Shown piece by piece: positions 832 to 15,367 of a stretch of DNA of 22,785 nucleotides. The stretch's first letter is position 1; the number at the start of each line of letters is the position of its first letter. The notes under the pieces were generated by a model. That model did not search any database, was not told where the DNA came from, and saw only the letters and a list, made by a program, of their open reading frames with translations. The stretch is from an uncultured delta proteobacterium (lineage in GTDB: Bacteria > Desulfobacterota > RBG-13-43-22), in assembly GCA_963843145.1 (NCBI GenBank), contig CAWJJC010000001.1:1-22785 (forward strand). The letters are read 5' to 3'. The position numbers and the translations under genes were made by a program.

Positions 832-2295
832 ATGAAAGAACTCACCAGAAGGGATTTTTTTAAATACTCCGCCCTGGGCGGAGCCGTCGGTTTGGCCCAT
901 CTGGCCCGGCCTCTTGATTTAATGGGGGCCGCTGCCCCCGCACCTTCCCCCGCGGTAAAAGAAATCCGGTTTACGGCCGCCGTGACCAGCGTGGATCTGG
1001 GGACCGGCAAGTCCTTCAAGGCCTGGACCTATAACGGACAGGTCCCGGGGCCTGAAATCCGGGTGAAGGAGGGCCAGCGGCTCCGGGTCATGGTTAAAAA
1101 CCAGCTTCCTGAAGGGACGACCGTCCACTGGCACGGTCTGCCGGTTCCCAACCGTATGGACGGCGTTCCCTTTGTCACTCAGAAACCCATCCAGCCCGGA
1201 GAAACCTTCGTCTATGAATTTGAAGCCAACCCTCCGGGGACGTACTTGTACCATTCCCACGCCTCGTATCAATTGGACCGGGGATTATACGGCACCCTGA
1301 TCGTAGAACCCAATCGGGAGGACCTGAAATATGATCGGGAATTCTCCTGGCTCCTGGAAGACTGGGCCACCTTGGATGGCGGCGGCCCGGAGGCTTCCAA
1401 AATGGGCCGGATAGCCCCCCAGATGGGCATGATGGGCGGGATGAGGGGAAGAAGGCGGTTCGGCGGCGGCGGCGGCGGTCCACTCCAGGAACCTCTTTAT
1501 GATGTCTATACCATCAACGGGAAAGTTCGGGAGGCCTCCCAGGACTTTAAGGTCAAGAAAGGGGACCGGGTGCGGATACGAATCGGCAATCCCTCCTCCT
1601 CCACCTTTTACACCCTGCGGATCGCCGGCCATTCCATGACCATCACTCATGCCGACGGCCGGCCGGTTCTTCCTTTTACCGTGGATGCCCTGCGGATCGG
1701 CATGGGTGAACGGTACGATGTCCTGGTGACCGCCGACCATCCCGGCCGGTGGGCCGTCTACACGCTGAACGAACGGTCTCCGTCGGGGGGCCTGATCCTG
1801 GGCACTCTGTTATATGAAGGGGTTCGCGCCAGGGATTTCAGCAGCGCCCCCGAGGCCTCTTTTCGGATCAATGATTACCGCTTCCTCGAAGGAATGGATG
1901 AGAAGTACCTGATTCCGGTCCAGGGGGAGGCGAATCGTGTCTTCCGAATGACCTTAAGCGGCGGAATGATGGGCTCCCCCTACTGGACCATCAACGGCCG
2001 GGCCTACCCGGATTCAGAGGATCTGACCCTTAAAAAAGGTGAGCGGGTGCGCCTGGAATATTTCAACCGGAGCATGATGAACCACCCCATGCATCTGCAT
2101 GGCCATTTTTTTGAATTGGTGGGAAGCGGAATGGTAACCGGCGTCCGGGTGAAAAAGGATACGATCATTATCCCCGCCCGCATGGGCGGGGGCGCCGTGG
2201 AATTTATCGCCGACAACCCCGGCGTCTGGTTTCATCACTGCCACAACCTTTATCACATGGAAGCGGGGATGGCCAGCCTGGTGAAAGTGATATAA
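832..2295 (+). CDS. Tat-exported multicopper oxidase (three cupredoxin domains)
   Basis: Twin-arginine signal TRRDFFK; copper ligands HWHG, YHSH, HPMHLHGH, HCHNLYHMEAGM; Met/Gly-rich insert; GGAG RBS. Confidence 0.95.
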   Translation: MKELTRRDFFKYSALGGAVGLAHLARPLDLMGAAAPAPSPAVKEIRFTAAVTSVDLGTGKSFKAWTYNGQVPGPEIRVKEGQRLRVMVKNQLPEGTTVHWHGLPVPNRMDGVPFVTQKPIQPGETFVYEFEANPPGTYLYHSHASYQLDRGLYGTLIVEPNREDLKYDREFSWLLEDWATLDGGGPEASKMGRIAPQMGMMGGMRGRRRFGGGGGGPLQEPLYDVYTINGKVREASQDFKVKKGDRVRIRIGNPSSSTFYTLRIAGHSMTITHADGRPVLPFTVDALRIGMGERYDVLVTADHPGRWAVYTLNERSPSGGLILGTLLYEGVRARDFSSAPEASFRINDYRFLEGMDEKYLIPVQGEANRVFRMTLSGGMMGSPYWTINGRAYPDSEDLTLKKGERVRLEYFNRSMMNHPMHLHGHFFELVGSGMVTGVRVKKDTIIIPARMGGGAVEFIADNPGVWFHHCHNLYHMEAGMASLVKVI

Positions 2296-2306
2296 CGATT
2301 TTGGTA

Positions 2307-2373
2307 AGGAGCGAAGCGTCGAGGCAATCACCCGGTCGGCACCGGTGATTGCCTCGCTTCACTCGCCCTGACA
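2307..2373. repeat. REP-like palindromic element, family A copy 1
   Basis: GAGCGAAG..CGAGGCAATCACC / GGTGATTGCCTCG-CTTCACTC stem; shares GGAGYGAAGC..GCAATC with the copies at 10227 and 14087. Confidence 0.75.
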
Positions 2374-2428
2374 GACTGGAGGACCTTTGCTGAAACAAGT
2401 AAAGGATTGTTGCCCGACTTAAAAATAC

Positions 2429-2462
2429 AGAAAGGCCAAGGGGAATCCCCCTTGGCCTTTCT
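2429..2462. terminator. Probable bidirectional intrinsic terminator
   Basis: Perfect 15-bp stem AGAAAGGCCAAGGGG-AATC-CCCCTTGGCCTTTCT between convergent genes, with T-rich tails on both strands. Confidence 0.8.
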
Positions 2463-2473
2463 CTTTGAGGTTA

Positions 2474-2914
2474 TTAGTTGATGGGACGCACCCAGCCGGT
2501 ATTCTTATCAATGGCCAGCTTGGAAACCAGAGAGTTGTCTTTGGTTCGGACCTCACCTTCAAAATAGGTCGTTTTGTCCTCGATCTTTCCGGCCTTAAGG
2601 TTGGGATTCCCGCCGATGTAATTGCTGACGATGGAGGCTGCGTCTTTCTCGCTCAACACTTTCTGCCCGCCGGTGGCCCCGTAGGAGTCGTCCCAGCAGG
2701 GCATCCCGGAATACTGGCCCCCGTTGCCCTGGTAGGCCGGACCCATCATCGGTCCCCCGTAACCATAGCCGGACCCCATCATGGATCCACCATAGCCATA
2801 GCCAGGCCCCGCCATGTGGCCCCAGCCGCCTCCCGGTCCCCAATAACCGGCTAACGCATAACCGCTGACCCCAAGCCCTAATACCAGAACCGTAACCATT
2901 AATAATTTTTTCAT
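2474..2914 (-). CDS. Exported Gly/Met/Tyr-repeat protein with small PepSY-like C-terminal domain; occupies the ZraP position
   Basis: TAAGGAGG RBS 8 nt before ATG 2914; signal peptide MKKLL..YALA; repeats of GxGYGYGGxMM; C-terminal FEGEVRTKDNSLVSKLAIDKNTG is PepSY-like (inference). Confidence 0.8.
   Translation of the reverse strand: MKKLLMVTVLVLGLGVSGYALAGYWGPGGGWGHMAGPGYGYGGSMMGSGYGYGGPMMGPAYQGNGGQYSGMPCWDDSYGATGGQKVLSEKDAASIVSNYIGGNPNLKAGKIEDKTTYFEGEVRTKDNSLVSKLAIDKNTGWVRPIN
2736..2830 (-). repeat. Imperfect 33-bp (11-aa) coding tandem repeat, about 3 units
   Basis: Encodes GHMAGPGYGYG / GSMMGSGYGYG / GPMMGPAY. Confidence 0.75.
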
Positions 2915-2957
2915 AACCATTACCTCCTTAAAAATGTTTTGTTTTGCTTTCATATAT

Positions 2958-2973
2958 TGCAACCGGGATGCCA
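2958..2973 (-). promoter_or_regulatory. Sigma54 promoter of the periplasmic repeat protein
   Basis: Minus strand TGGCAT-CCCGG-TTGCA, a near-perfect -24/-12 element. Confidence 0.85.
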
Positions 2974-2990
2974 ACAGGGTCTTTATTTAA

Positions 2991-3003
2991 TAACCTATTG
3001 ATT
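2991..3003 (-). promoter_or_regulatory. IHF binding site
   Basis: Minus strand AATCAATAGGTTA exactly matches WATCAANNNNTTR and lies between the sigma54 promoter and the upstream activator sites. Confidence 0.7.
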
Positions 3004-3059
3004 ATATTATATTAGTATTCGTTAAAGGTGAAGTGAAGTCCTTTAATGAATAATTTGGA

Positions 3060-3118
3060 TGAATAATTTTTATGCACTCGACCTGTTCAAAACGATACTT
3101 TTGGGTAAATTTTATGCA
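3060..3118. promoter_or_regulatory. Pair of candidate enhancer (UAS) sites for the ZraR-like regulator
   Basis: TGAATAATTTTTATGCA (3060-3076) and TGGGTAAATTTTATGCA (3102-3118): imperfect 17-bp dyads 42 bp apart (about 4 helical turns). Confidence 0.65.
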
Positions 3119-3127
3119 CTTTGGATG

Positions 3128-3156
3128 TAGACTAAAATTTCAATTCGTTATAGATT
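3128..3156 (+). promoter_or_regulatory. Candidate sigma70 promoter of the two-component operon
   Basis: TAGACT-N17-TAGATT. Confidence 0.4.
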
Positions 3157-7505: not shown

Positions 7506-9068
7506 TTATCTTTTTGACCTCTTTCCTCTCCCATAGGGAATCTTTAATTTTCTCATCTTGTTTCGCAAGGTGCTGGGATTGAGACCCAGCAATTGAGCCG
7601 CCCCTTCGTCCCCCTCCACCTTCCCCCCCGTGATCTTCAATACCTGTCGGATGTGGCGGGCCACTAATTCTTCCAGAACCGGGGGCCTTTCACTGCCTTC
7701 TACGACTTCGTTTTCTTTTCCTTCCAAGGGGAGCGGTTTATGGGGAATCGGTTCTATTTCGAACTTAAGTTCATCTCCCCGGCTTAAAATTAGGGAGCGC
7801 TCCACGATATTTTGCAATTCCCGCACGTTTCCCGGCCAATTGTAGGCCATCAGGCTCTCGACGGCTTGCGGCGAAAGGCTGGGCCGCGCTTTTATTCCCA
7901 GTTCCCTGGTTTTGCGTTCAATAAAATGGTGGACTAACTCCGGAATATCTTCCCGCCTTTCCCTGAGCGGGGGCACCAGGATAGGAAAGACATTGAGCCT
8001 GAACCAGAGGTCAGCCCGAAAACCGCCGGATTCCGTCATCTGCCGCAAATCCCGGTTCGTGGCGGCAATGATTCGAACATCGACCTTTACCGGTTCGGTT
8101 CCTCCCACCCTTTCCAGCTCTTTCTCCTGAAGGACCCGCAGCAGTCTCACCTGGGCGTTGGGTGGCAATTCGCCGACTTCATCCAAGAAGAGCGTCCCCT
8201 GCTCGGCCCGTTCAAAGCGTCCCCTTTTTCGGGAAAGGGCGCCGGTAAAAGCCCCTTTCTCGTGCCCGAAGAGCTCACTGTCCAGCAGACTCTCGGGGAT
8301 GGCCCCGCAGTTGATCTTGATAAAAGGGCCGCCATTCCGGAGGGAAAGACGATGGATGGCACTGGCAAGGATCTCCTTTCCAACCCCTGTCTCTCCCAGA
8401 AGAAGAACAGGACTGGAAAGGGGGGCAACCTGTCTGACCAACTCCATAACCTGCCGCAATCCAAAATCGCTCCCGATAATCTCTTCCCCCGATATCTGTC
8501 GCAGCTCCTGGAGCAGGTAGCGGTTGTCATCGGAGAGCATTTCCTTTAACGTCAGCACTTCCCGGTACCGAAGGCTGTTGGACAAAGCGATGCCAAAAGG
8601 CTGGTTTAAGGCGGCCATCAGCCGAACGTCTTCATCCGTATACCTGTCGTTCCCGTCGGCCCGGACGGTGAGGGCGCCTACGCGCTTTCCGCCGATAACC
8701 AGACGCATGACCAATAGTGATGACTGAAGCCTTCCGTGGGCCCTCCCCATATCCCGGGTCACCGGGTCGAGCACGGCTCGGTTAATCCGCTTAATCTCCG
8801 GTCGAACGACCTGACTCAATTCGGCGGACGCTTCCTCGGATAACTTTACCGATCGAGGGGGGCTATGAAATTTCCCCCCTTCCCTGGTAGCGGTCGCAAT
8901 GGTCCCGATGATTTTTTTGTCCAGGTCATAGATATGGTAATTCATTTCATCCACCGGAATGAAATCCTTGAGGTAATCGAAACAGTTCCAGAGGGCTATT
9001 TCCACATCCAGGCTGCTGCTGATCCTTAACGTGACCTCCTTGAAAAACTCCTCTTCCTTTGGAAGCAT
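7506..9068 (-). CDS. GAF-domain sigma54 enhancer-binding activator (FhlA/NifA-like architecture)
   Basis: N-terminal GAF-like domain with no receiver; GETGVGKE, DSELFGHEKGAFTGA, WPGNVRELQN; HTH GAAQLLGLNPSTLRNKMRKL; AGGAG RBS. Confidence 0.93.
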   Translation of the reverse strand: MLPKEEEFFKEVTLRISSSLDVEIALWNCFDYLKDFIPVDEMNYHIYDLDKKIIGTIATATREGGKFHSPPRSVKLSEEASAELSQVVRPEIKRINRAVLDPVTRDMGRAHGRLQSSLLVMRLVIGGKRVGALTVRADGNDRYTDEDVRLMAALNQPFGIALSNSLRYREVLTLKEMLSDDNRYLLQELRQISGEEIIGSDFGLRQVMELVRQVAPLSSPVLLLGETGVGKEILASAIHRLSLRNGGPFIKINCGAIPESLLDSELFGHEKGAFTGALSRKRGRFERAEQGTLFLDEVGELPPNAQVRLLRVLQEKELERVGGTEPVKVDVRIIAATNRDLRQMTESGGFRADLWFRLNVFPILVPPLRERREDIPELVHHFIERKTRELGIKARPSLSPQAVESLMAYNWPGNVRELQNIVERSLILSRGDELKFEIEPIPHKPLPLEGKENEVVEGSERPPVLEELVARHIRQVLKITGGKVEGDEGAAQLLGLNPSTLRNKMRKLKIPYGRGKRSKR

Positions 9069-10287: not shown

Positions 10288-10427
10288 TAGTTTTTCCTCT
10301 TTTTTCTATAAACGCATCCTGGGTGAATAAAAGTTTTCGTTTTTGTTTGCTTTAAAATCGTCTATTCTGACCGGACTCCTATTGAGGAATAGCCCGGACT
10401 TGATTCAAGCCCCAGACCCCTTAGATC

Positions 10428-10730
10428 ATGACCTATTCAAAGCAGATTAAACTTCCCATCGACGGCGTCCTGGACCTGCATACCTTTCCTCCTCGGGAAG
10501 TTAAAGCCCTAATTCCCGATTACCTGACGGCCTGTCGTGAAAAGGGCATCTACCAGGTGCGCCTTATTCACGGCAAAGGTACCGGGACCTTGAGGGAAAT
10601 CGTCCACGCCGTTCTTAGAAAACAGCCCGGGGTCGCTTCTTATCGTTTGGCCGGCGAGGAGGGAGGGGGCTGGGGTGCCACGCTGGTGCTCCTCAGGCCC
10701 GTTTCCCCTCCTCCAGCTTCCACCCTATAA
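10428..10730 (+). CDS. Stand-alone Smr/MutS2 C-terminal domain protein
   Basis: LDLHTF, LIHGKGTGTLR, GGWGAT motifs. Confidence 0.9.
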   Translation: MTYSKQIKLPIDGVLDLHTFPPREVKALIPDYLTACREKGIYQVRLIHGKGTGTLREIVHAVLRKQPGVASYRLAGEEGGGWGATLVLLRPVSPPPASTL

Positions 10731-10793
10731 ATTATCCAAAACAAGAGTTGCCTGGGAAAGCCTCGCGAAGCCTAAAATTATTTCTTAGGGTCT

Positions 10794-10823
10794 GTTGACT
10801 TTTATCAACCCAGGCCTTAAAAT
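10794..10823 (+). promoter_or_regulatory. Sigma70 promoter with a dyad over the -35
   Basis: TTGACT (10795-10800)-N17-TAAAAT (10818-10823); GTTGA-CTTTTA-TCAAC at 10794-10809. Confidence 0.7.
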
Positions 10824-10850
10824 CTAAAAACTAAGAAAAGAGCCGAGCCC

Positions 10851-11258
10851 TTGAAATCTAAAATTTTCCAATTTGCGCTGGTTATAACCTTAATTCTCAG
10901 TTTGTTCGGGTTGGGACTGGCGTCACCCTTAGCTCCCTGTAATTGTTTGAAGTCTAAAGCCCGGACAACTGCAGTTCATCCTTACCAGGATACGGGTTGC
11001 TGTACACCGCCGGCCGTACCTTCATCGCCCGCCTGCCCCTGTGAGGACGACTGTAATCCGACTTTCCAATCGCCGGTCAAGGATCTTGTCATATCGCTTA
11101 ACGCCGGCCAATCGGCTTTTTCTTTAGAAATCAACCACTTTTCTTCAATTCTCCGTGGATCCCTGCCGTCTGAACTGTTGGCTTCAAGGTTGGTTTTTCC
11201 GATCCACAGCCCTCCACCTGGCCCTTTGTACCTCAAGACTCTTTCCCTGCGCTGTTAA
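10851..11258 (+). CDS. Cys-rich exported hypothetical protein; possible metal-responsive leader ORF
   Basis: TTG start just after the promoter; hydrophobic N-terminal helix; 8 Cys (CNC, CC, CPCEDDC, terminal C); C-terminal HSPPPGPLYLKTLSLRC. Confidence 0.65.
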   Translation: MKSKIFQFALVITLILSLFGLGLASPLAPCNCLKSKARTTAVHPYQDTGCCTPPAVPSSPACPCEDDCNPTFQSPVKDLVISLNAGQSAFSLEINHFSSILRGSLPSELLASRLVFPIHSPPPGPLYLKTLSLRC

Positions 11259-11460
11259 TCCCTCCATCCCCTCAGCGGATCTCTTAATCCATCTTTAAAG
11301 AAAGTCTTAGGCTATTATTTTGGCCTAGGCCCGGATCCTTCCTATTTCAGGATAGGGCGGATCACCTAAAATTCAACGTTAGCCAATAACTAAGTGTTTC
11401 GATTCGCAAATAGGATAACGCATGTTTTATGAGACTAAACGGCGCAATTGCTCACTCCAT

Positions 11461-11481
11461 TCGGCCCGAGCTCATGGCCGA
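11461..11481. repeat. Short GC-rich palindrome in the intergenic region
   Basis: TCGGCC-CGAGCTCAT-GGCCGA; further stems at about 11308-11327 and 11333-11364. Confidence 0.5.
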
Positions 11482-11561
11482 GGGCAACACTTAGTCCCGA
11501 GTGAATAAATACGTTATCGAATTTATGAATCGAGGGACTCAAAAAAAAAGGAGACCTAAAA

Positions 11562-12041
11562 ATGTTTTCAAGATACTTAAAAAAGATCAATCCCGTATTT
11601 TCCTGCCTGTCAGGCTTAATACTTATTTCGGGTATTCTGGTATTTTCTTATTCACAGGGCCTGGCCCTGGGAAAAACCACCGCCTCCAGTCCGTCCGAAT
11701 TTTCATATCAAGCCTCCCAGTTTGCCGACGGAAAGGCCCGTTTCTTCACTTATTCCGCCCCCGGGGGGAAGACCATCAAATATTTCATTATCAAGAGTTC
11801 CGACGGTGTCATCCGGGCCGCTTTTGACGCCTGCGATGTTTGCTGGCCCTCCGGAAAGGGATACAAGCAGGATGGCGATTTCATGGTCTGCCAGAACTGC
11901 GGACAACGATTTGCCTCCAAATTGGTGAACGAGGTCAAAGGCGGCTGCAACCCGGCGCCTCTGGCGAGGACGATGCAAGGGGACCATCTGGTTATCAAGG
12001 CCAAAGATATACAGGCGGGCCAAAGTTACTTTACTTTTTAA
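11562..12041 (+). CDS. DUF2318-like (FtrD-like, predicted Fe-S/metal-binding) exported protein
   Basis: N-terminal TM/signal; AAFDACDVC, CQNCGQRF, GGCNPAPL; AGGAG RBS. Confidence 0.88.
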   Translation: MFSRYLKKINPVFSCLSGLILISGILVFSYSQGLALGKTTASSPSEFSYQASQFADGKARFFTYSAPGGKTIKYFIIKSSDGVIRAAFDACDVCWPSGKGYKQDGDFMVCQNCGQRFASKLVNEVKGGCNPAPLARTMQGDHLVIKAKDIQAGQSYFTF

Positions 12042-12056
12042 ATCGGGGAACCCCTT

Positions 12057-13214
12057 ATGAAACTTAGAACCATTGCCTATCGCAATTTGATGCGTCGGAA
12101 GGCCAAGGCCCTGTTTATCTTGGTGGGCCTCCTGATCGGGATCGCCTCGGTAGTGGCCTTCATCAGTCTGGTGGAGGCCCTGACCACTGAAATCAACCAT
12201 AAGATGGAAAAATACGGGGCCAATATTCTAATAGTTCCCAAAACCGAAAATCTATCCCTGACCTACGGCGGGATATCCCTGGGCGGCCTCTCTTTTGATA
12301 TGAAGGAAATAAAGCAGGCCGATCTGGAGAAGATCAGGACCATAAAAAATAAAGCCAATGTGGCGGCGATCGGCCCCATGGTTTTGGGTGCTGTGACGGT
12401 CAATAATAAGCAGCTCTTGCTCGGAGGATTGGATTTCAAGGTCCGCCGCTTTCTACGCCCCTGGTGGAAGACCGAAGGGCGTTTCCCTGAACAAGAAGAA
12501 CTTCTGGCCGGCTCGGAAGCCGCCCGCATATTGGGGCTGACCGAAGGGAAAGCGGTCGCCCTCAACGGAAAGAACCTCCGGGTTTCCGGCATTTTGGAAC
12601 CAACCGGTTCCCAGGATGACCAGATGATCTTCGGCCACCTAACCACCGCCCAGGCGATTTTGGGCAAGCAGGGGCGCATCTCCATGGCCGAGGTGGCCGC
12701 TTTGTGCTCCGGTTGCCCCATAGAAGATATGGTGACCCAGATCTCCGGGGTCCTGCCGGGAGCCAAGGTCATGGCCATCAAGCAGGTGGTTCAGAGCCGG
12801 ATGGAGGCCTTGGGGCATTTTCAAAAGCTGGCTTTCATACTGTCCGGGCTGGTGATCCTGGTGGGAGCCTTGGTGGTTTTGGTGACGATGATGGGCAGCG
12901 TTCGGGAGCGGACCAGTGAGATCGGCATCTTCCGGTCCATCGGTTTTCGACGAAGCCACGTGATGCGCATCATTCTGCTGGAGGCCGGGGTGGTTTCTTT
13001 TCTGGCCGGTGCCGTGGGGTACCTGGTCGGCATCGGAGTCACGCAGGCCGCCCTGCCCTTTTTCTCCGACGGCCCCACCCTGTCCGTCGGTTTCAGCCCG
13101 ATCATCGCCGGCGGGGCCGTGGGACTGGCCCTCGTTCTGGGCCTCCTGGCCGGTATCTACCCGGCGCTGATGGCCGCTCGCCTGGATCCGAATGAAGCGC
13201 TGCGCACCCTTTAA
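12057..13214 (+). CDS. MacB/FtsX-family ABC transporter permease
   Basis: TM1, large periplasmic domain with ALCSGCPIE, ERTSEIGIFRSIG, three C-terminal TMs, AARLDPNEALR. Confidence 0.93.
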   Translation: MKLRTIAYRNLMRRKAKALFILVGLLIGIASVVAFISLVEALTTEINHKMEKYGANILIVPKTENLSLTYGGISLGGLSFDMKEIKQADLEKIRTIKNKANVAAIGPMVLGAVTVNNKQLLLGGLDFKVRRFLRPWWKTEGRFPEQEELLAGSEAARILGLTEGKAVALNGKNLRVSGILEPTGSQDDQMIFGHLTTAQAILGKQGRISMAEVAALCSGCPIEDMVTQISGVLPGAKVMAIKQVVQSRMEALGHFQKLAFILSGLVILVGALVVLVTMMGSVRERTSEIGIFRSIGFRRSHVMRIILLEAGVVSFLAGAVGYLVGIGVTQAALPFFSDGPTLSVGFSPIIAGGAVGLALVLGLLAGIYPALMAARLDPNEALRTL

Positions 13215-13231
13215 TCGAAGAGGACCTGGAC

Positions 13232-13987
13232 ATGGACTACGTAAAAATGGAAAATATAGTTAAAACCTATGGCACGGGTGAGGGAAAGGTGGCCGCCCTT
13301 CAGGGAATCAGCCTGTCCATTCGAACCGATGAATTTGTAGCCATCATGGGCGAATCGGGTTCGGGAAAATCAACCCTTCTATCCATCCTGGGCGTTTTGA
13401 ATACCCCTTCCGGCGGGTCCTATCAGGTGAACGGGGTTGAGGTTTATTCCCTGACCAGTGAACAGCAGGCTGACTTTCGGCGGGAAAATTTGGGATTCGT
13501 CTTTCAAAGCTTTCACCTGATCCCCTACCTGTCGGTGGCGGAGAACGTCATGCTGCCGCTGACCACCAAGCGTCTCAAGGAAAAGATCAAGCGGGAAATG
13601 GCTGACGAGGCCCTGTCCCGGGTGGGCCTGGCTTCCAAGGGCCACCGCTTGCCGAACCAGATCTCCGGCGGGGAGCAGGAGCGCGTGGCCATCGCCCGGG
13701 CCGTGGTCAATAAACCGCCGATTCTGCTGGCCGACGAACCCACCGGGAACCTGGACACCCGGACCGGCCTGGAGATCCTCGAGTTACTTCAAGAGCTGAA
13801 TGGGGAGGGTATGACTATCATCATGGTCACCCACAGCCCGGAATGGTCCCGTTACACCCATCGGATCCTGCAGATTTCCGATGGTCGGCTGAAGGGGGAG
13901 GAGACCAACTCCGCCCCGCTCGAGTTATTTCCGGCCGAATTCGGGCTGCCTGTTTTTCCGGCGGGAAGGCTGGCGGCGGCGGGCTGA
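13232..13987 (+). CDS. ABC transporter ATP-binding protein (LolD/MacB-like)
   Basis: [41 protein letters not shown]. Confidence 0.95.
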
Positions 13988-14086
13988 TTAACATCCCCCA
14001 AGCCGCGGGATCGTTATACTCCCCAACCTGCCGGACCGGTGGACTTTTTACGAGACTGACCAAGGGGATGATTCCCCCCCGGCTGC

Positions 14087-14191
14087 TCATCGCGAGGAGT
14101 GAAGCGACAGAGCAATCCGCAGGAAGCAGATCGTTGCTGATAGCGCCTTTGGGATCCGGAGGCCAATCACCTGCTGCCCGGATTGGCTCCG
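14087..14191. repeat. REP-like palindromic element, family A copy 3 (degenerate/composite)
   Basis: TCATCGCGAGGAGTGAAGCGACAGAGCAATCC at 14087-14118; hairpin CGGAGGCCAATC..GATTGGCTCCG at 14157-14191. Confidence 0.65.
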
Positions 14192-14235
14192 CCGTTCCAG
14201 ATATAAACGGTCTCAAAATAGTTCCAACATCGTAG

Positions 14236-14320
14236 CGTCATCCCCGCAGCGTTTTTGAGCGGGGATCCAGTTTTTTCTCAGGGAACACTGGATCCCCGAT
14301 AAAGCCATTCGGGGATGACG
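14236..14320. repeat. Nested-palindrome (cloverleaf-like) repeat, family B
   Basis: Termini CGTCATCCCCG / CGGGGATGACG; each half self-pairs (ATCCCCGC..GCGGGGAT, ATCCCCGA..TCGGGGAT); central CCAG..CTGG. Confidence 0.85.
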
Positions 14321-14383
14321 AGAAATTAAATGTAAAAATAATCATGAGATAGGTAATACAAAGCTTCCAGAAAATTCCAAAGG

Positions 14384-15367
14384 TTAATTGGTTATGGTAA
14401 TCATCAGCCCGTTGCTGATGGCCCCTTTCGAGTTCCGGATTTTCACGGTCACCGTTCCTGGAATGTTGCCGCTGTTCCAACTTGGGGAGGTGACCGAAGT
14501 CGGGGACCAACTGGCGGCCGTCAGGGGCACACCGCTGATCAGAGCCGCGCCGGGAGTGGTGTTGGGGCCGAACCCCTCACCCGTGACAAGAAATGAAGTG
14601 CTGGTATTTATTCGGACGCTTTCCGGATACACCCCGGTGACCGTGGGCTGCTCCAGAGTGACTGTCGGCGTGCAGTCGGCCGTGTATCCGTAGCGGTTAT
14701 CGACATAGAGCAGATACAACGGGTTACCGGCCGTGTATTCCCCGAGACGGTGGTCGTTGGAAACCGCGTCAAAAGGTGGATCCGAAACCCCTTCAAATTT
14801 CATACTGGGAATGAGGTTTCGGCCCGAATCATAGAAATAGAAATTCTTGCCGGTGCAGGTGCTCGCAATCCGGGCCGTGCTTCCGATACCTGAAGCAAAG
14901 GAGGTCGGGGGACTGGATGGTGGTGGCCTGGATGGTCAGGAAGCCGGAACTGAGTGCCGGGACAGTTCATGGAACACGGGGTTTACCGGCAGGCTCATCA
15001 CCACCGGCGCCTCCCTGGAGATCCAATTCCAGGACTTGACCGGCTCAAAGGATCTGCTCCAGTAGGCCTTGGCGAATTCCAGGTAAAAATCCGCGAACGG
15101 TTTTCCGGTAACGGACTCGATGGCCCCCGCCGGTCCCGTCCAATCGTCCGACATGGTCCAGAAGGTTTCCAGGACCGCCGTAGCTTTTTTGCTTTGCAGG
15201 TAAACGGCCAGGGCCATGGCCGCGTTCATTTCTTCGGTGGCCATGCCGTTCCAGTTGGCGTATCCGTTCCGCAGCCATTCCTCGCCGGACCCGTAGATAT
15301 CGTTGGTATAATAGCCGGTGTGGGACGGGTAAACCTCATACTGGACAGGTGCGGGGGTCAATTCTTT
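14384..15367 (-). pseudogene. 5'-truncated, disrupted remnant of a secreted/surface protein with C-terminal IPT/TIG-like Ig domain
   Basis: ORFs 14936..15457 and 14384..14803 share a frame, split by TGA at 14936-14938; no start or RBS; C-terminus PTVTGVYP..FLVTGEGFG..VTVKIRN..SNGLMITI is IPT/TIG-like. Confidence 0.65.

Follow-up and report, generated by a model that had tools for sequence, protein, structure and literature searches.

The 22,785-nucleotide stretch of DNA analysed here, referred to as the window, forms the start of contig 1 of an assembly (5.35 Mb, 32 contigs) from an uncultured delta proteobacterium. Positions 10851–11258 hold a small open reading frame (sORF) for a protein of 135 residues. 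Sequence comparison identifies it as a real, translated gene under purifying selection and as the first cistron of a transcription unit with the order promoter–sORF–spacer–DUF2318–FtsX–ABC (ATP-binding cassette). The proposed function is a cis-acting one: in the way reported for CruR and CutF, the nascent sORF chain would sense a thiophilic metal, or the thiol redox state, outside the cytoplasm, with a C-terminal motif that does not depend on proline. This proposal, which is given about an even chance of being correct, is favoured because the layout of the locus matches the layouts reported for CruR and CutF.

Homologues of DUF2318 are present in five of 40 relatives, and in three relatives a homologue of the sORF lies upstream of the DUF2318 gene, with identities of 90%, 47% and 42% (tblastn). 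A further seven proteins and seven loci joined this sORF subfamily through profile and contig searches. The 11 subfamily sequences align across all 135 residues with no indels, at 36–47% identity except for one pair at 90%. Residues C30, C32, C50, C51, C62, C64, C68, P54, P63, D66, L128 and L133-R134-C135 are invariant in all 11 proteins, each of which ends at LRC-stop with no residues beyond; G22 and A24 are also invariant in this alignment, and H119 is nearly so. A fourth relative (G016, locus L006, oriented positions 902–1310) carries a distant sORF homologue that is split by a frameshift, with the signal-peptide part and a CPC motif in one frame and the remainder, ending ...LIFYLPIQNLRC-stop, in another. 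The frame break falls near an A-run, and an assembly error, a pseudogene or programmed frameshifting are all possible.

The seven distinct subfamily loci for which DNA was compared all have a TTG start and a TAA stop. The ratio of nonsynonymous to synonymous substitution rates (dN/dS) for the sORF is 0.20 against the closest relative and 0.27–0.47 against the others, the exception being the near-identical pair L012/L014, at 0.71. In terms of proportions of nonsynonymous (pN) and synonymous (pS) differences, linker residues 73–117 give pN/pS of ~0.7–0.8 in diverged pairs, and the tail gives pN of 0.00–0.31 versus pS of 0.14–0.75. Codons for invariant tail residues change synonymously (CTG/CTA, CGC/CGT and TGT/TGC). 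Together, the synonymous changes in the tail, the low dN/dS and the absence of indels from the linker indicate selection on the peptide, and in the linker selection on length rather than on sequence.

An earlier note on this DNA, made from its letters alone, had described a TTG start, an export-like helix and CxC, CC and CxCxxxC clusters in the first ORF, and that description holds for the 135-residue product and its seven invariant cysteines. AlphaFold2 (AF2) models a helix at residues 3–23, with predicted local distance difference test (pLDDT) scores of 74–77 for the first two ten-residue blocks. Past the helix, no confident fold was obtained (mean pLDDT 45, from an 11-row alignment). The signal peptide was judged by eye and from AF2, without a signal-peptide predictor, and the product is presumably cleaved by signal peptidase. 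A lipoprotein signal was considered and rejected: some members carry a lipobox-like VxSC and the window's protein carries LAPC, a pattern that is inconsistent across members. The clusters in the window's protein are C30xC32, C50C51 and C62xC64xxxC68. Its tail is HSPPPGPLYLKTLSLRC, and its C-terminal end reads ...PLYLKTLSLRC-stop.

The earlier note had also assigned the role of arrest element to the proline run in this tail, a claim that the homologues contradict. The PPP run, absent in most of them, is replaced by PPK, PPA, LLI, PLP or PPF. A PP within the last 15 residues, which the window's protein has (P121–P123), is missing in P0002, in L014 and in several wider members, e.g. L043 and L049. 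As PPP is not conserved among homologues, polyproline was ruled out as the key element of the sORF.

Annotation searches placed the protein in no family. Pfam returned no family for the window's sORF protein at E ≤ 1 and nothing at E ≤ 10 for all 11 subfamily members, and NCBIfam returned no match for the window's protein. A word-index protein search with the single sORF sequence found no homologue. A HMMER search of 1.84 billion representatives found two credible homologues; a repetitive 387-residue protein at 2e-4 in the same search was treated as spurious. In the ESM Atlas, the sORF matched only unnamed clusters and no family. Searches of PDB sequences with family profiles yielded nothing usable: the sORF profile gave a single match, at E 0.2, and the DUF2318 profile gave no match. 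A profile search with the broad family alignment recovered four proteins, all labelled 'hypothetical'. At the RNA level, no Rfam family reached its gathering score in the whole window, and positions 10700–11700 gave only chance-level matches (E 0.4–3.5). These results agree with the view of the earlier note that the system is undescribed: the sORF has no Pfam or NCBIfam match, and its records read only 'hypothetical protein'. No description of the sORF family was found in the literature, within a scope that did not extend to File S1 and the figures of the CutF survey, which could therefore list the family.

The family extends well beyond this subfamily. A DUF2318 protein search across 401 genomes of the Thermodesulfobacteriota (E ≤ 1e-10) matched 80 of them, and the sORF family stands upstream of DUF2318 in 26 of 68 other DUF2318 loci of the phylum. 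The first 28 loci comprise 18 intact family ORFs and the one frameshifted copy, five SurA-like genes, two ThiS-like genes and two loci without upstream sequence. The 18 intact ORFs encode 116–164 residues, with a hydrophobic N-terminus, CC, CxC or CCC clusters and the same type of end, as in GPPGPLYLFNLSLLC, PPPEPLYLQKASLLI, APVPLYLSHASLLI and SVKVYLKIVSLIC. Among 40 further, more distant loci, four match the strict tail pattern and three are variants of it. The family-wide tail consensus is P.(L/V/I)Y(L).{3,4}(S)L[LRI][CI]-stop. Pfam gave no credible match for these 18 proteins and the seven further tail-type proteins; a few matches at E ≤ 1 all lay far below their cut-offs.

Outside the subfamily, identity to the window's sORF protein is only 12–24%, in loci whose adjacent DUF2318 proteins are 51–72% identical. 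Across all compared loci, the ranges are 51–88% for DUF2318 versus 12–47% for the sORF, from which the sORF protein appears to diverge about three times faster than DUF2318. The earlier note had expected ORFs upstream of DUF2318 orthologues to share cysteine clusters and a PP..LYL...LRC tail at low overall identity. The clusters and a stop-anchored tail of the LYL... type are indeed shared despite this 12–24% identity, but the PP is not universal and the final LRC varies. Two cysteines, C50 and C64, remain invariant across a family alignment of 23 sequences. Between C64 and the C-terminus lie 68.0 ± 2.6 residues (range 63–71), as measured in a MAFFT alignment that may favour the nearest Cys; the distance from C51 to C64 is far more variable, at 12.3 ± 6.1 residues (range 6–27).

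When the 401 phylum genomes were scanned with the family profile, 26 gave a match, among them the window's own and many that match by construction; at least 20 of 24 credible matches lie directly upstream of DUF2318. DUF2318 is present in 24 of the 26 sORF-positive genomes versus 80 of 401 overall. At locus L074 (G238:C63, oriented positions 1483–3135), a 129-residue family member ending ...PPPKVFILNSSFLC stands 106 nt before an FtsX-type permease, with no DUF2318 between them; the DUF2318 gene of that genome lies on another contig, behind a ThiS-like gene.

The earlier note had placed the sORF first behind a sigma70-like promoter, and both the window and its relatives bear this out. The site at 10795–10823 is the top scorer among five promoter-like sites in 10300–14400. 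All seven subfamily loci show a TTGAC -35-like element together with an A/T-rich -10-like hexamer ~27 nt ahead of the TTG; the promoter scan called a site with a 17-nt spacer in six of these, and L009 gave a different match with a 16-nt spacer. Purine-rich stretches comparable to that of the window precede the TTG at other subfamily loci. Under one rule (TTGACn-17-TAnnnT), applied identically to sORF upstream regions and to the spacers between sORF and DUF2318, 18 of 25 family loci have a promoter-like site 13–36 nt ahead of the sORF start codon, and none of the 25 spacers has one. A scan for sigma54-like sites (at least 9 of 11 matches to the consensus) was negative in all 32 spacers. Hairpins with a U-tract resembling intrinsic terminators were found in four of 25 spacers, all of them weak. 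In a scan with the delta-proteobacterial FUR-box consensus (PMC545781 Table 3), three of 25 upstream regions beat shuffled sequences at ≤ 0.05, which is about chance; the available text of PMC545781 makes no mention of the sORF gene.

Spacer length depends on the gene that comes first. With a tail-type sORF first, the spacer to DUF2318 is 84–400 nt, with a median of about 175 (32 loci). When an HMA-domain gene is first, it is -23 to 56 nt (seven loci), and when a SurA-like gene is first, -4 to 107 nt (five loci). Long spacers thus track the occupant of the first slot and belong to the sORF arrangement rather than to the operon as such. Every DUF2318 gene in the family loci carries its own strong Shine–Dalgarno sequence.

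The alternative occupants of the first slot are themselves of two kinds. Membrane-anchored HMA-domain proteins with a C-terminal, CGGCG-type cysteine tail occupy it at L091, L112, L114, L117, L118, L120 and L122, and all four that were tested match the Pfam HMA model. A protein of ~320 residues with a Zn-ribbon and a SurA_N-like region occupies it at L027, L029, L030, L032 and L047. Downstream of the slot, the DUF2318–ABC genes recognised by the earlier note were confirmed by Pfam matches to PF10080, to MacB_PCD with FtsX, and to ABC_tran. The combination of MacB_PCD and FtsX in the permease with a separate ABC ATPase is that of MacB/FtsX-type (type VII) systems. The closest NCBIfam models for the ATPase are DarD, LolD and MacB, all below their cut-offs, and none of the transporter genes reaches an equivalog cut-off. 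An FtsX permease gene follows DUF2318 in 36 of 40 further loci. At L007 (G040, positions 508–1824), one protein joins an FTR1 iron permease to a DUF2318 domain at its C-terminal end (Pfam 1.2e-40 and 1.6e-26), and an FtsX-type permease gene comes next.

Between the window and its closest relative, the spacer differs at ~12 of 189 aligned positions (~6%, a hand count) versus a pS of 0.205 for the sORF, and is thus more conserved than synonymous sites between these two closest genomes. The earlier note had drawn attention to several hairpins in its 303 nt. The spacer does fold better than shuffled sequences (z-score -3.31, 0 of 100 as good), but 151 nt of it are a repeat, which supplies half of the hairpins. 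As a conserved attenuator, the hairpins were ruled out, given this origin and the ordinary folding of the relative's spacer (z-score -1.57). The hairpin-rich repeat (11389–11539) has two further copies in the genome, on C17, at 95% identity, and on C12, at 75% identity and with an internal gap of 28 nt; both are in sense orientation and lie a short distance ahead of a start codon. The closest relative, G002, keeps only an internally deleted form of 37 nt. The 3' 55 nt of the repeat are present, in differing contexts, in six of 21 genomes searched (counting that of the window), and are 82–95% identical in four further genomes of the same family. Rfam gave no match for the 151-nt sequence, which could be an element like a repetitive extragenic palindrome (REP) or a miniature inverted-repeat transposable element (MITE), or a small cis-regulatory module. 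Hairpins with TCGATT/AATCGA arms in the window and in L008 belong to this repeat. Similar hairpins at a similar place in L012/L014 are conserved between these two loci, whose first spacer halves have diverged. In L010, five tandem TTCGATG-like heptamers followed by a T8 run lie ~180–220 nt past the sORF stop, just before the DUF2318 Shine–Dalgarno sequence.

The C-rich, G-poor stretch that the earlier note had seen after the stop codon is present, but as a skew that is mainly coding. The first 60 nt after the stop contain 18 C and 7 G. A 78-nt segment around the stop ranks in the top 0.2% for excess of C over G among 3214 long-ORF stop regions of the same genome, and this skew is positive in all seven subfamily loci (0.21–0.49 versus a genome mean of -0.05, standard deviation 0.20). 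A profile over 24 loci shows that it begins ~180 nt before the stop, in the Pro/Ser/Leu-rich coding part, and returns to background by 30–60 nt past the stop. As most of the skew lies inside the ORF, the C-rich tract is largely a matter of coding composition. In the window, the C-tract after the stop pairs with the DUF2318 Shine–Dalgarno sequence in both the minimum-energy and the centroid folds. A rho gene is present in the genome.

Comparison supports a set of hallmarks that the sORF appears to share with CruR and CutF, namely a place at the head of the unit, a putative export signal, invariant cysteines, a motif anchored at the stop codon, a fixed distance from the cysteines to the end and a long spacer without a recognisable promoter or terminator. 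Export, metal binding, arrest, action in cis and the metal sensed are inferred. In the proposed mechanism, the signal helix would direct the growing sORF chain to the Sec translocon. By the time the ribosome arrives at the final codons, the cysteine cluster, ~68 residues back, would just have cleared the ribosome tunnel and the translocon. Metal binding or disulfide formation by these cysteines would then alter the pull on the chain, and the last ~15 conserved residues (P.LYL...SL[LR][CI]-stop), lying in the tunnel, would hold or release the ribosome at or beside the stop codon. Its dwell time there would set expression of DUF2318–FtsX–ABC across the long spacer. The likelier route is that Rho loading on C-rich RNA at the stop would be blocked or allowed, as in CruR or TnaC, a route favoured by the length of the spacers, by the C-rich RNA and by the absence of intrinsic terminators. 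Altered access to the DUF2318 ribosome-binding site, as in CutF, would be a less likely route.

Several observations weigh against this proposal. Weak extra conservation after the cysteine cluster (F72, Q73, D78 and S82) and a low-confidence AF2 beta-bridge between residues 80–81 and 126–127 would both fit a small folded domain, and the low AF2 confidence stems from the 11-row alignment, so that disorder is not proven by it. The distance from the helix to C50 is also fairly fixed (44.9 ± 4.4 residues, range 31–53), as it would be in a domain, and the possible bias of the aligner towards the nearest Cys bears on the C64 distance. The stop codon varies in the wider family (TAA 10, TGA 5, TAG 3). 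No conserved RNA structure was found in the spacer: the 189-nt spacer of the closest relative is not unusually structured, as 15 of 200 shuffled sequences fold as well, and pairing of the C-tract with the DUF2318 Shine–Dalgarno sequence is no better than in shuffled controls, with two of 25 loci at ≤ 0.05. The C>G skew may just reflect Pro, Ser and Leu codons. The family does not match the DUF2946 model. Finally, metal-binding HMA-domain proteins hold the same operon slot in other lineages, which implies that the sORF could be just another metal-binding accessory protein.

Such a role, acting in trans, is the main rival proposal and is considered rather unlikely. The sORF product would be an ordinary accessory of the DUF2318–FtsX–ABC system, secreted or anchored and largely unstructured, which serves as a periplasmic metal binder or thiol relay. 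Its tail would dock on DUF2318, on the periplasmic domain of FtsX or on a PDZ-type protease, and the spacer would be incidental or contain unrecognised regulatory sites. The tail appears to fit the pattern hydrophobic-x-hydrophobic-COOH, which is a common form of PDZ ligand. The seven invariant cysteines, the extra conserved positions after the cluster, the hint of a beta-bridge and the tight co-occurrence with DUF2318 are as expected of an accessory, as is the presence of HMA-domain or SurA-like proteins in the same slot elsewhere in the phylum. Moreover, in the available text of PMC10783030, FetA (DUF2318)–FetBCD of Campylobacter jejuni works with two thioredoxin-like proteins, which makes a thiol-rich helper plausible. 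What an accessory role leaves unexplained is a spacer of 84–400 nt that appears only after an sORF-type first gene and has no recognisable promoter or terminator, the retention of a weak TTG start, and a protein that diverges ~3 times faster than DUF2318 yet holds a 68-residue spacing to its exact C-terminus. The lack of a confident fold, a Pfam match or a PDB relative for the protein also counts against it.

It is improbable that the sORF product is instead the cargo of the MacB-type transporter, as a secreted, cysteine-rich peptide or the precursor of a modified peptide whose C-terminus is the recognition or core region. The permease has a MacB periplasmic core domain and an FtsX domain, the best NCBIfam models for the ATPase include peptide and darobactin exporters (below cut-offs), and at L074 the sORF directly precedes the permease with no DUF2318 between. 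In Escherichia coli, MacB reportedly exports a cysteine-rich enterotoxin. However, no maturation enzyme was recognised among the flanking genes of the listed loci, and the operon contains neither a membrane-fusion nor an outer-membrane partner. The link that is best conserved is the one with DUF2318, whose fusion to the FTR1 iron permease in a relative from the phylum points to metal handling rather than peptide export, and the long spacer and fixed spacing are again left unexplained. Almost no credence is given to a chance or decaying frame within what is merely a long 5' leader of the DUF2318 operon. Such a frame would be consistent with the lack of a database name or family and with the frameshifted copy in G016 (L006), but the frame, start and stop are conserved with no indels, dN/dS is well under 1, the invariant tail changes synonymously, and family members are present in at least 26 genomes, counting that of the window, out of the 401 searched in the phylum.

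The extracytoplasmic metal-sensing leaders studied so far are only CruR and CutF, both of which are assigned to DUF2946, rely on proline and respond to copper. If the sORF is a cis-acting sensor, then the sensing principle arose more than once, is tied neither to proline stalling nor to copper, and operates in anaerobic bacteria that reduce sulfate and metals. The sORF would also provide a new arrest-type sequence for ribosome studies and a handle on the substrate and role of the DUF2318–ABC module, as the module probably handles the same ligand that the leader senses. If the product is an accessory protein, the sORF family is still a new, unannotated partner of this module.

The features of the locus are listed in Table 1. 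A Smr-domain gene lies upstream of the sORF, and a gene for an activator with GAF, sigma54-interaction and HTH_8 domains lies on the opposite (-) strand at 7506–9068, 1.8 kb upstream of the sORF. A terminator-like hairpin, GCCGG-CCAA-TCGGC followed by TTTTTCTTT, is found within the sORF at 11103–11125. Among public sequencing data, eight runs contain parts of the stretch, one of which is RNA. Four of the runs were examined. The RNA run gave one 192-nt contig on DUF2318 (11753–11944) and none on the sORF, and is uninformative on transcription or attenuation; the DNA runs examined contained only fragments of low depth.

Table 1. Coordinates of features at the sORF–DUF2318 locus, numbered from the first position of the window.
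Feature	Position	Strand	Remarks
Sigma70-type promoter-like site	10795..10823	+	TTGACT, 17-nt spacer, TAAAAT; 10 of 12 positions match; 27 nt 5' of the TTG
Purine-rich Shine–Dalgarno-like stretch	10833..10842	+	~8 nt 5' of the TTG; putative role, from reading the sequence
Small ORF (sORF), 135 residues, TTG start, TAA stop	10851..11258	+	Putatively exported, Cys-rich family without a name
Putative export signal, residues 1–26: KSK, hydrophobic core, GLA/SP	10851..10928	+	AF2 helix; G22 and A24 invariant
Cys-cluster region, residues 30–68 (CxC, CC, CxCxxxC)	10938..11054	+	Seven Cys invariant in 11 of 11
Linker, residues 69–117, of fixed length and drifting sequence	11055..11201	+	No indels; pN/pS ~0.7–0.8 for residues 73–117 in diverged pairs
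Conserved C-terminal tail, residues 118–135 and stop (H..PP.PLYL...SLRC-stop)	11202..11258	+	Alignment
78-nt C-rich, G-poor segment across the sORF stop (candidate Rho loading region)	11226..11303	+	C = 26, G = 9
303-nt spacer from sORF to DUF2318 gene	11259..11561	+	No sigma70-like or sigma54-like promoter or intrinsic terminator in scans
151-nt structured repeat inserted in the spacer, outside the conserved system	11389..11539	+	Two further genomic copies
GGAG Shine–Dalgarno sequence of DUF2318 gene	11550..11553	+	Read from the sequence
DUF2318/FtrD-like protein, 159 residues, N-terminal membrane segment	11562..12041	+	PF10080, 5.3e-32; 110.4 bits versus cut-off of 26.3
MacB/FtsX-type ABC permease, 385 residues	12057..13214	+	MacB_PCD PF12704, 3e-17; FtsX PF02687, 1.4e-23
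ABC ATPase, 251 residues	13232..13987	+	ABC_tran PF00005, 2e-33

Among characterised systems, the downstream module most resembles the Fet system of C. jejuni, FetA (DUF2318 and YHS)–FetBCD–FetEF, in which, according to the available text of PMC10783030, a DUF2318 protein with conserved CxxC motifs likewise sits beside an FtsX-type ABC transporter. The window differs in that it holds a minimal form, with a single-domain DUF2318, one permease and one ATPase, and without FetMP/P19 or thioredoxins. For the Campylobacter cluster, the available parts of PMC10783030 and PMC6083913, which link the DUF2318 module to iron, describe no small gene that resembles a leader. This iron link, the FTR1–DUF2318 fusion and the HMA proteins in the first slot together point to a thiophilic metal, without pinning down its identity.

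SecM, VemP and MifM, at 100–170 residues, begin with an export or membrane segment, are poorly conserved in the middle and end in a conserved arrest segment, from which the ribosome is released by a pulling force. The sORF shares this size and, with its tail as a candidate arrest segment, this order; release by pulling would likewise operate in its proposed mechanism. It differs in preceding a putative metal system and in its cysteine cluster, whereas SecM, VemP and MifM control genes of the secretion machinery and have no such cluster. In TnaC-type leaders, a short cytoplasmic peptide detects a small molecule within the ribosome tunnel; the sORF product has 135 residues, is predicted to be exported, and would sense outside the cytoplasm. 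The features in common with TnaC-type, Rho-coupled termination leaders are a conserved peptide that ends at the stop, C-rich RNA beside that stop and a spacer of a few hundred nt. TnaC is mentioned in the Discussion of PMC9973294.

CutF of Rhodobacter capsulatus, as described in the available parts of PMC9973294 and bioRxiv 10.1101/2025.02.05.636593, carries a signal peptide, a CxxxC motif and a PPP run at the C-terminus; it works through a stem-loop that is melted. On that description, the sORF resembles CutF in having a putative Sec signal peptide, a CxxxC (C64–C68), fewer than 150 residues and a metal-related gene downstream on the same strand; the window's sORF also has prolines in its last 15 residues, and the idea of extracytoplasmic sensing through a nascent chain is common to both. 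The differences concern the element that acts on the ribosome and the RNA after it. CutF needs its PPP run and elongation factor P (EF-P), but PPP is not conserved in the sORF family, and CutF has a short spacer with a stem-loop on the Shine–Dalgarno sequence of the next gene, whereas sORF spacers are 84–400 nt long and such a stem-loop is unsupported. Most of the rule-based filters for 'CutF-like' proteins in the accessible text of PMC9973294 would admit the sORF, with 135 residues (<150), an N-terminal helix at 3–23 and a same-strand gene at 303 nt (<1000 nt); a PP close to the C-terminus is not shared by every member. As neighbours, the text of that survey names copper, nickel or cobalt genes, and ABC, FtsX, MacB and iron are absent from its main text and two supplements.

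CruR (Bp2923) of Bordetella pertussis, a DUF2946 protein, combines an export signal, a CXXC and RAPP at a fixed 45-residue spacing with a 162-bp spacer and Rho-dependent termination, as described in the available text of PMC9426467. The DUF2946 model (PF11162) did not match the window's protein (E ≤ 1), the 11 subfamily members (E ≤ 10) or 18 of 18 wider members (E ≤ 1), and a six-frame search of the window's genome with it found nothing. There is no conserved CXXC in the sORF family, and no RAPP in any of the 11 or 23 aligned sequences, in keeping with the suggestion of the earlier note that the motif is other than RAPP. The family is therefore not filed as a member of DUF2946 or CruR. A wider proposal, rated a little short of an even chance, is that the sORFs make up a new, phylum-wide class of translocation-coupled nascent-chain sensors, with a periplasmic cysteine cluster that reads a thiophilic metal or redox state, a ~68-residue ruler and a stop-anchored, non-proline motif, which would gate Fet-like DUF2318/type VII ABC systems across a promoterless spacer and would be convergent with, and independent of, the DUF2946 (CruR/CutF) lineage. 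Set against the CruR of that report, the sORF has P.LYL...SL[LR][CI] at the stop versus RAPP three residues before the end, a spacing of ~68 versus 45 residues, and seven cysteines versus one CXXC; it belongs to the Thermodesulfobacteriota with DUF2318–FtsX–ABC downstream, and CruR to the Proteobacteria with a TonB-dependent transporter downstream. Like CruR as described there, the sORF is the first gene of its operon, with a putative export signal, a cysteine motif at a fixed distance from a C-terminal motif and a long intergenic region before a transporter gene. The proposed logic would also be the same, in that Rho termination would depend on whether a ribosome stays at the end of the leader.

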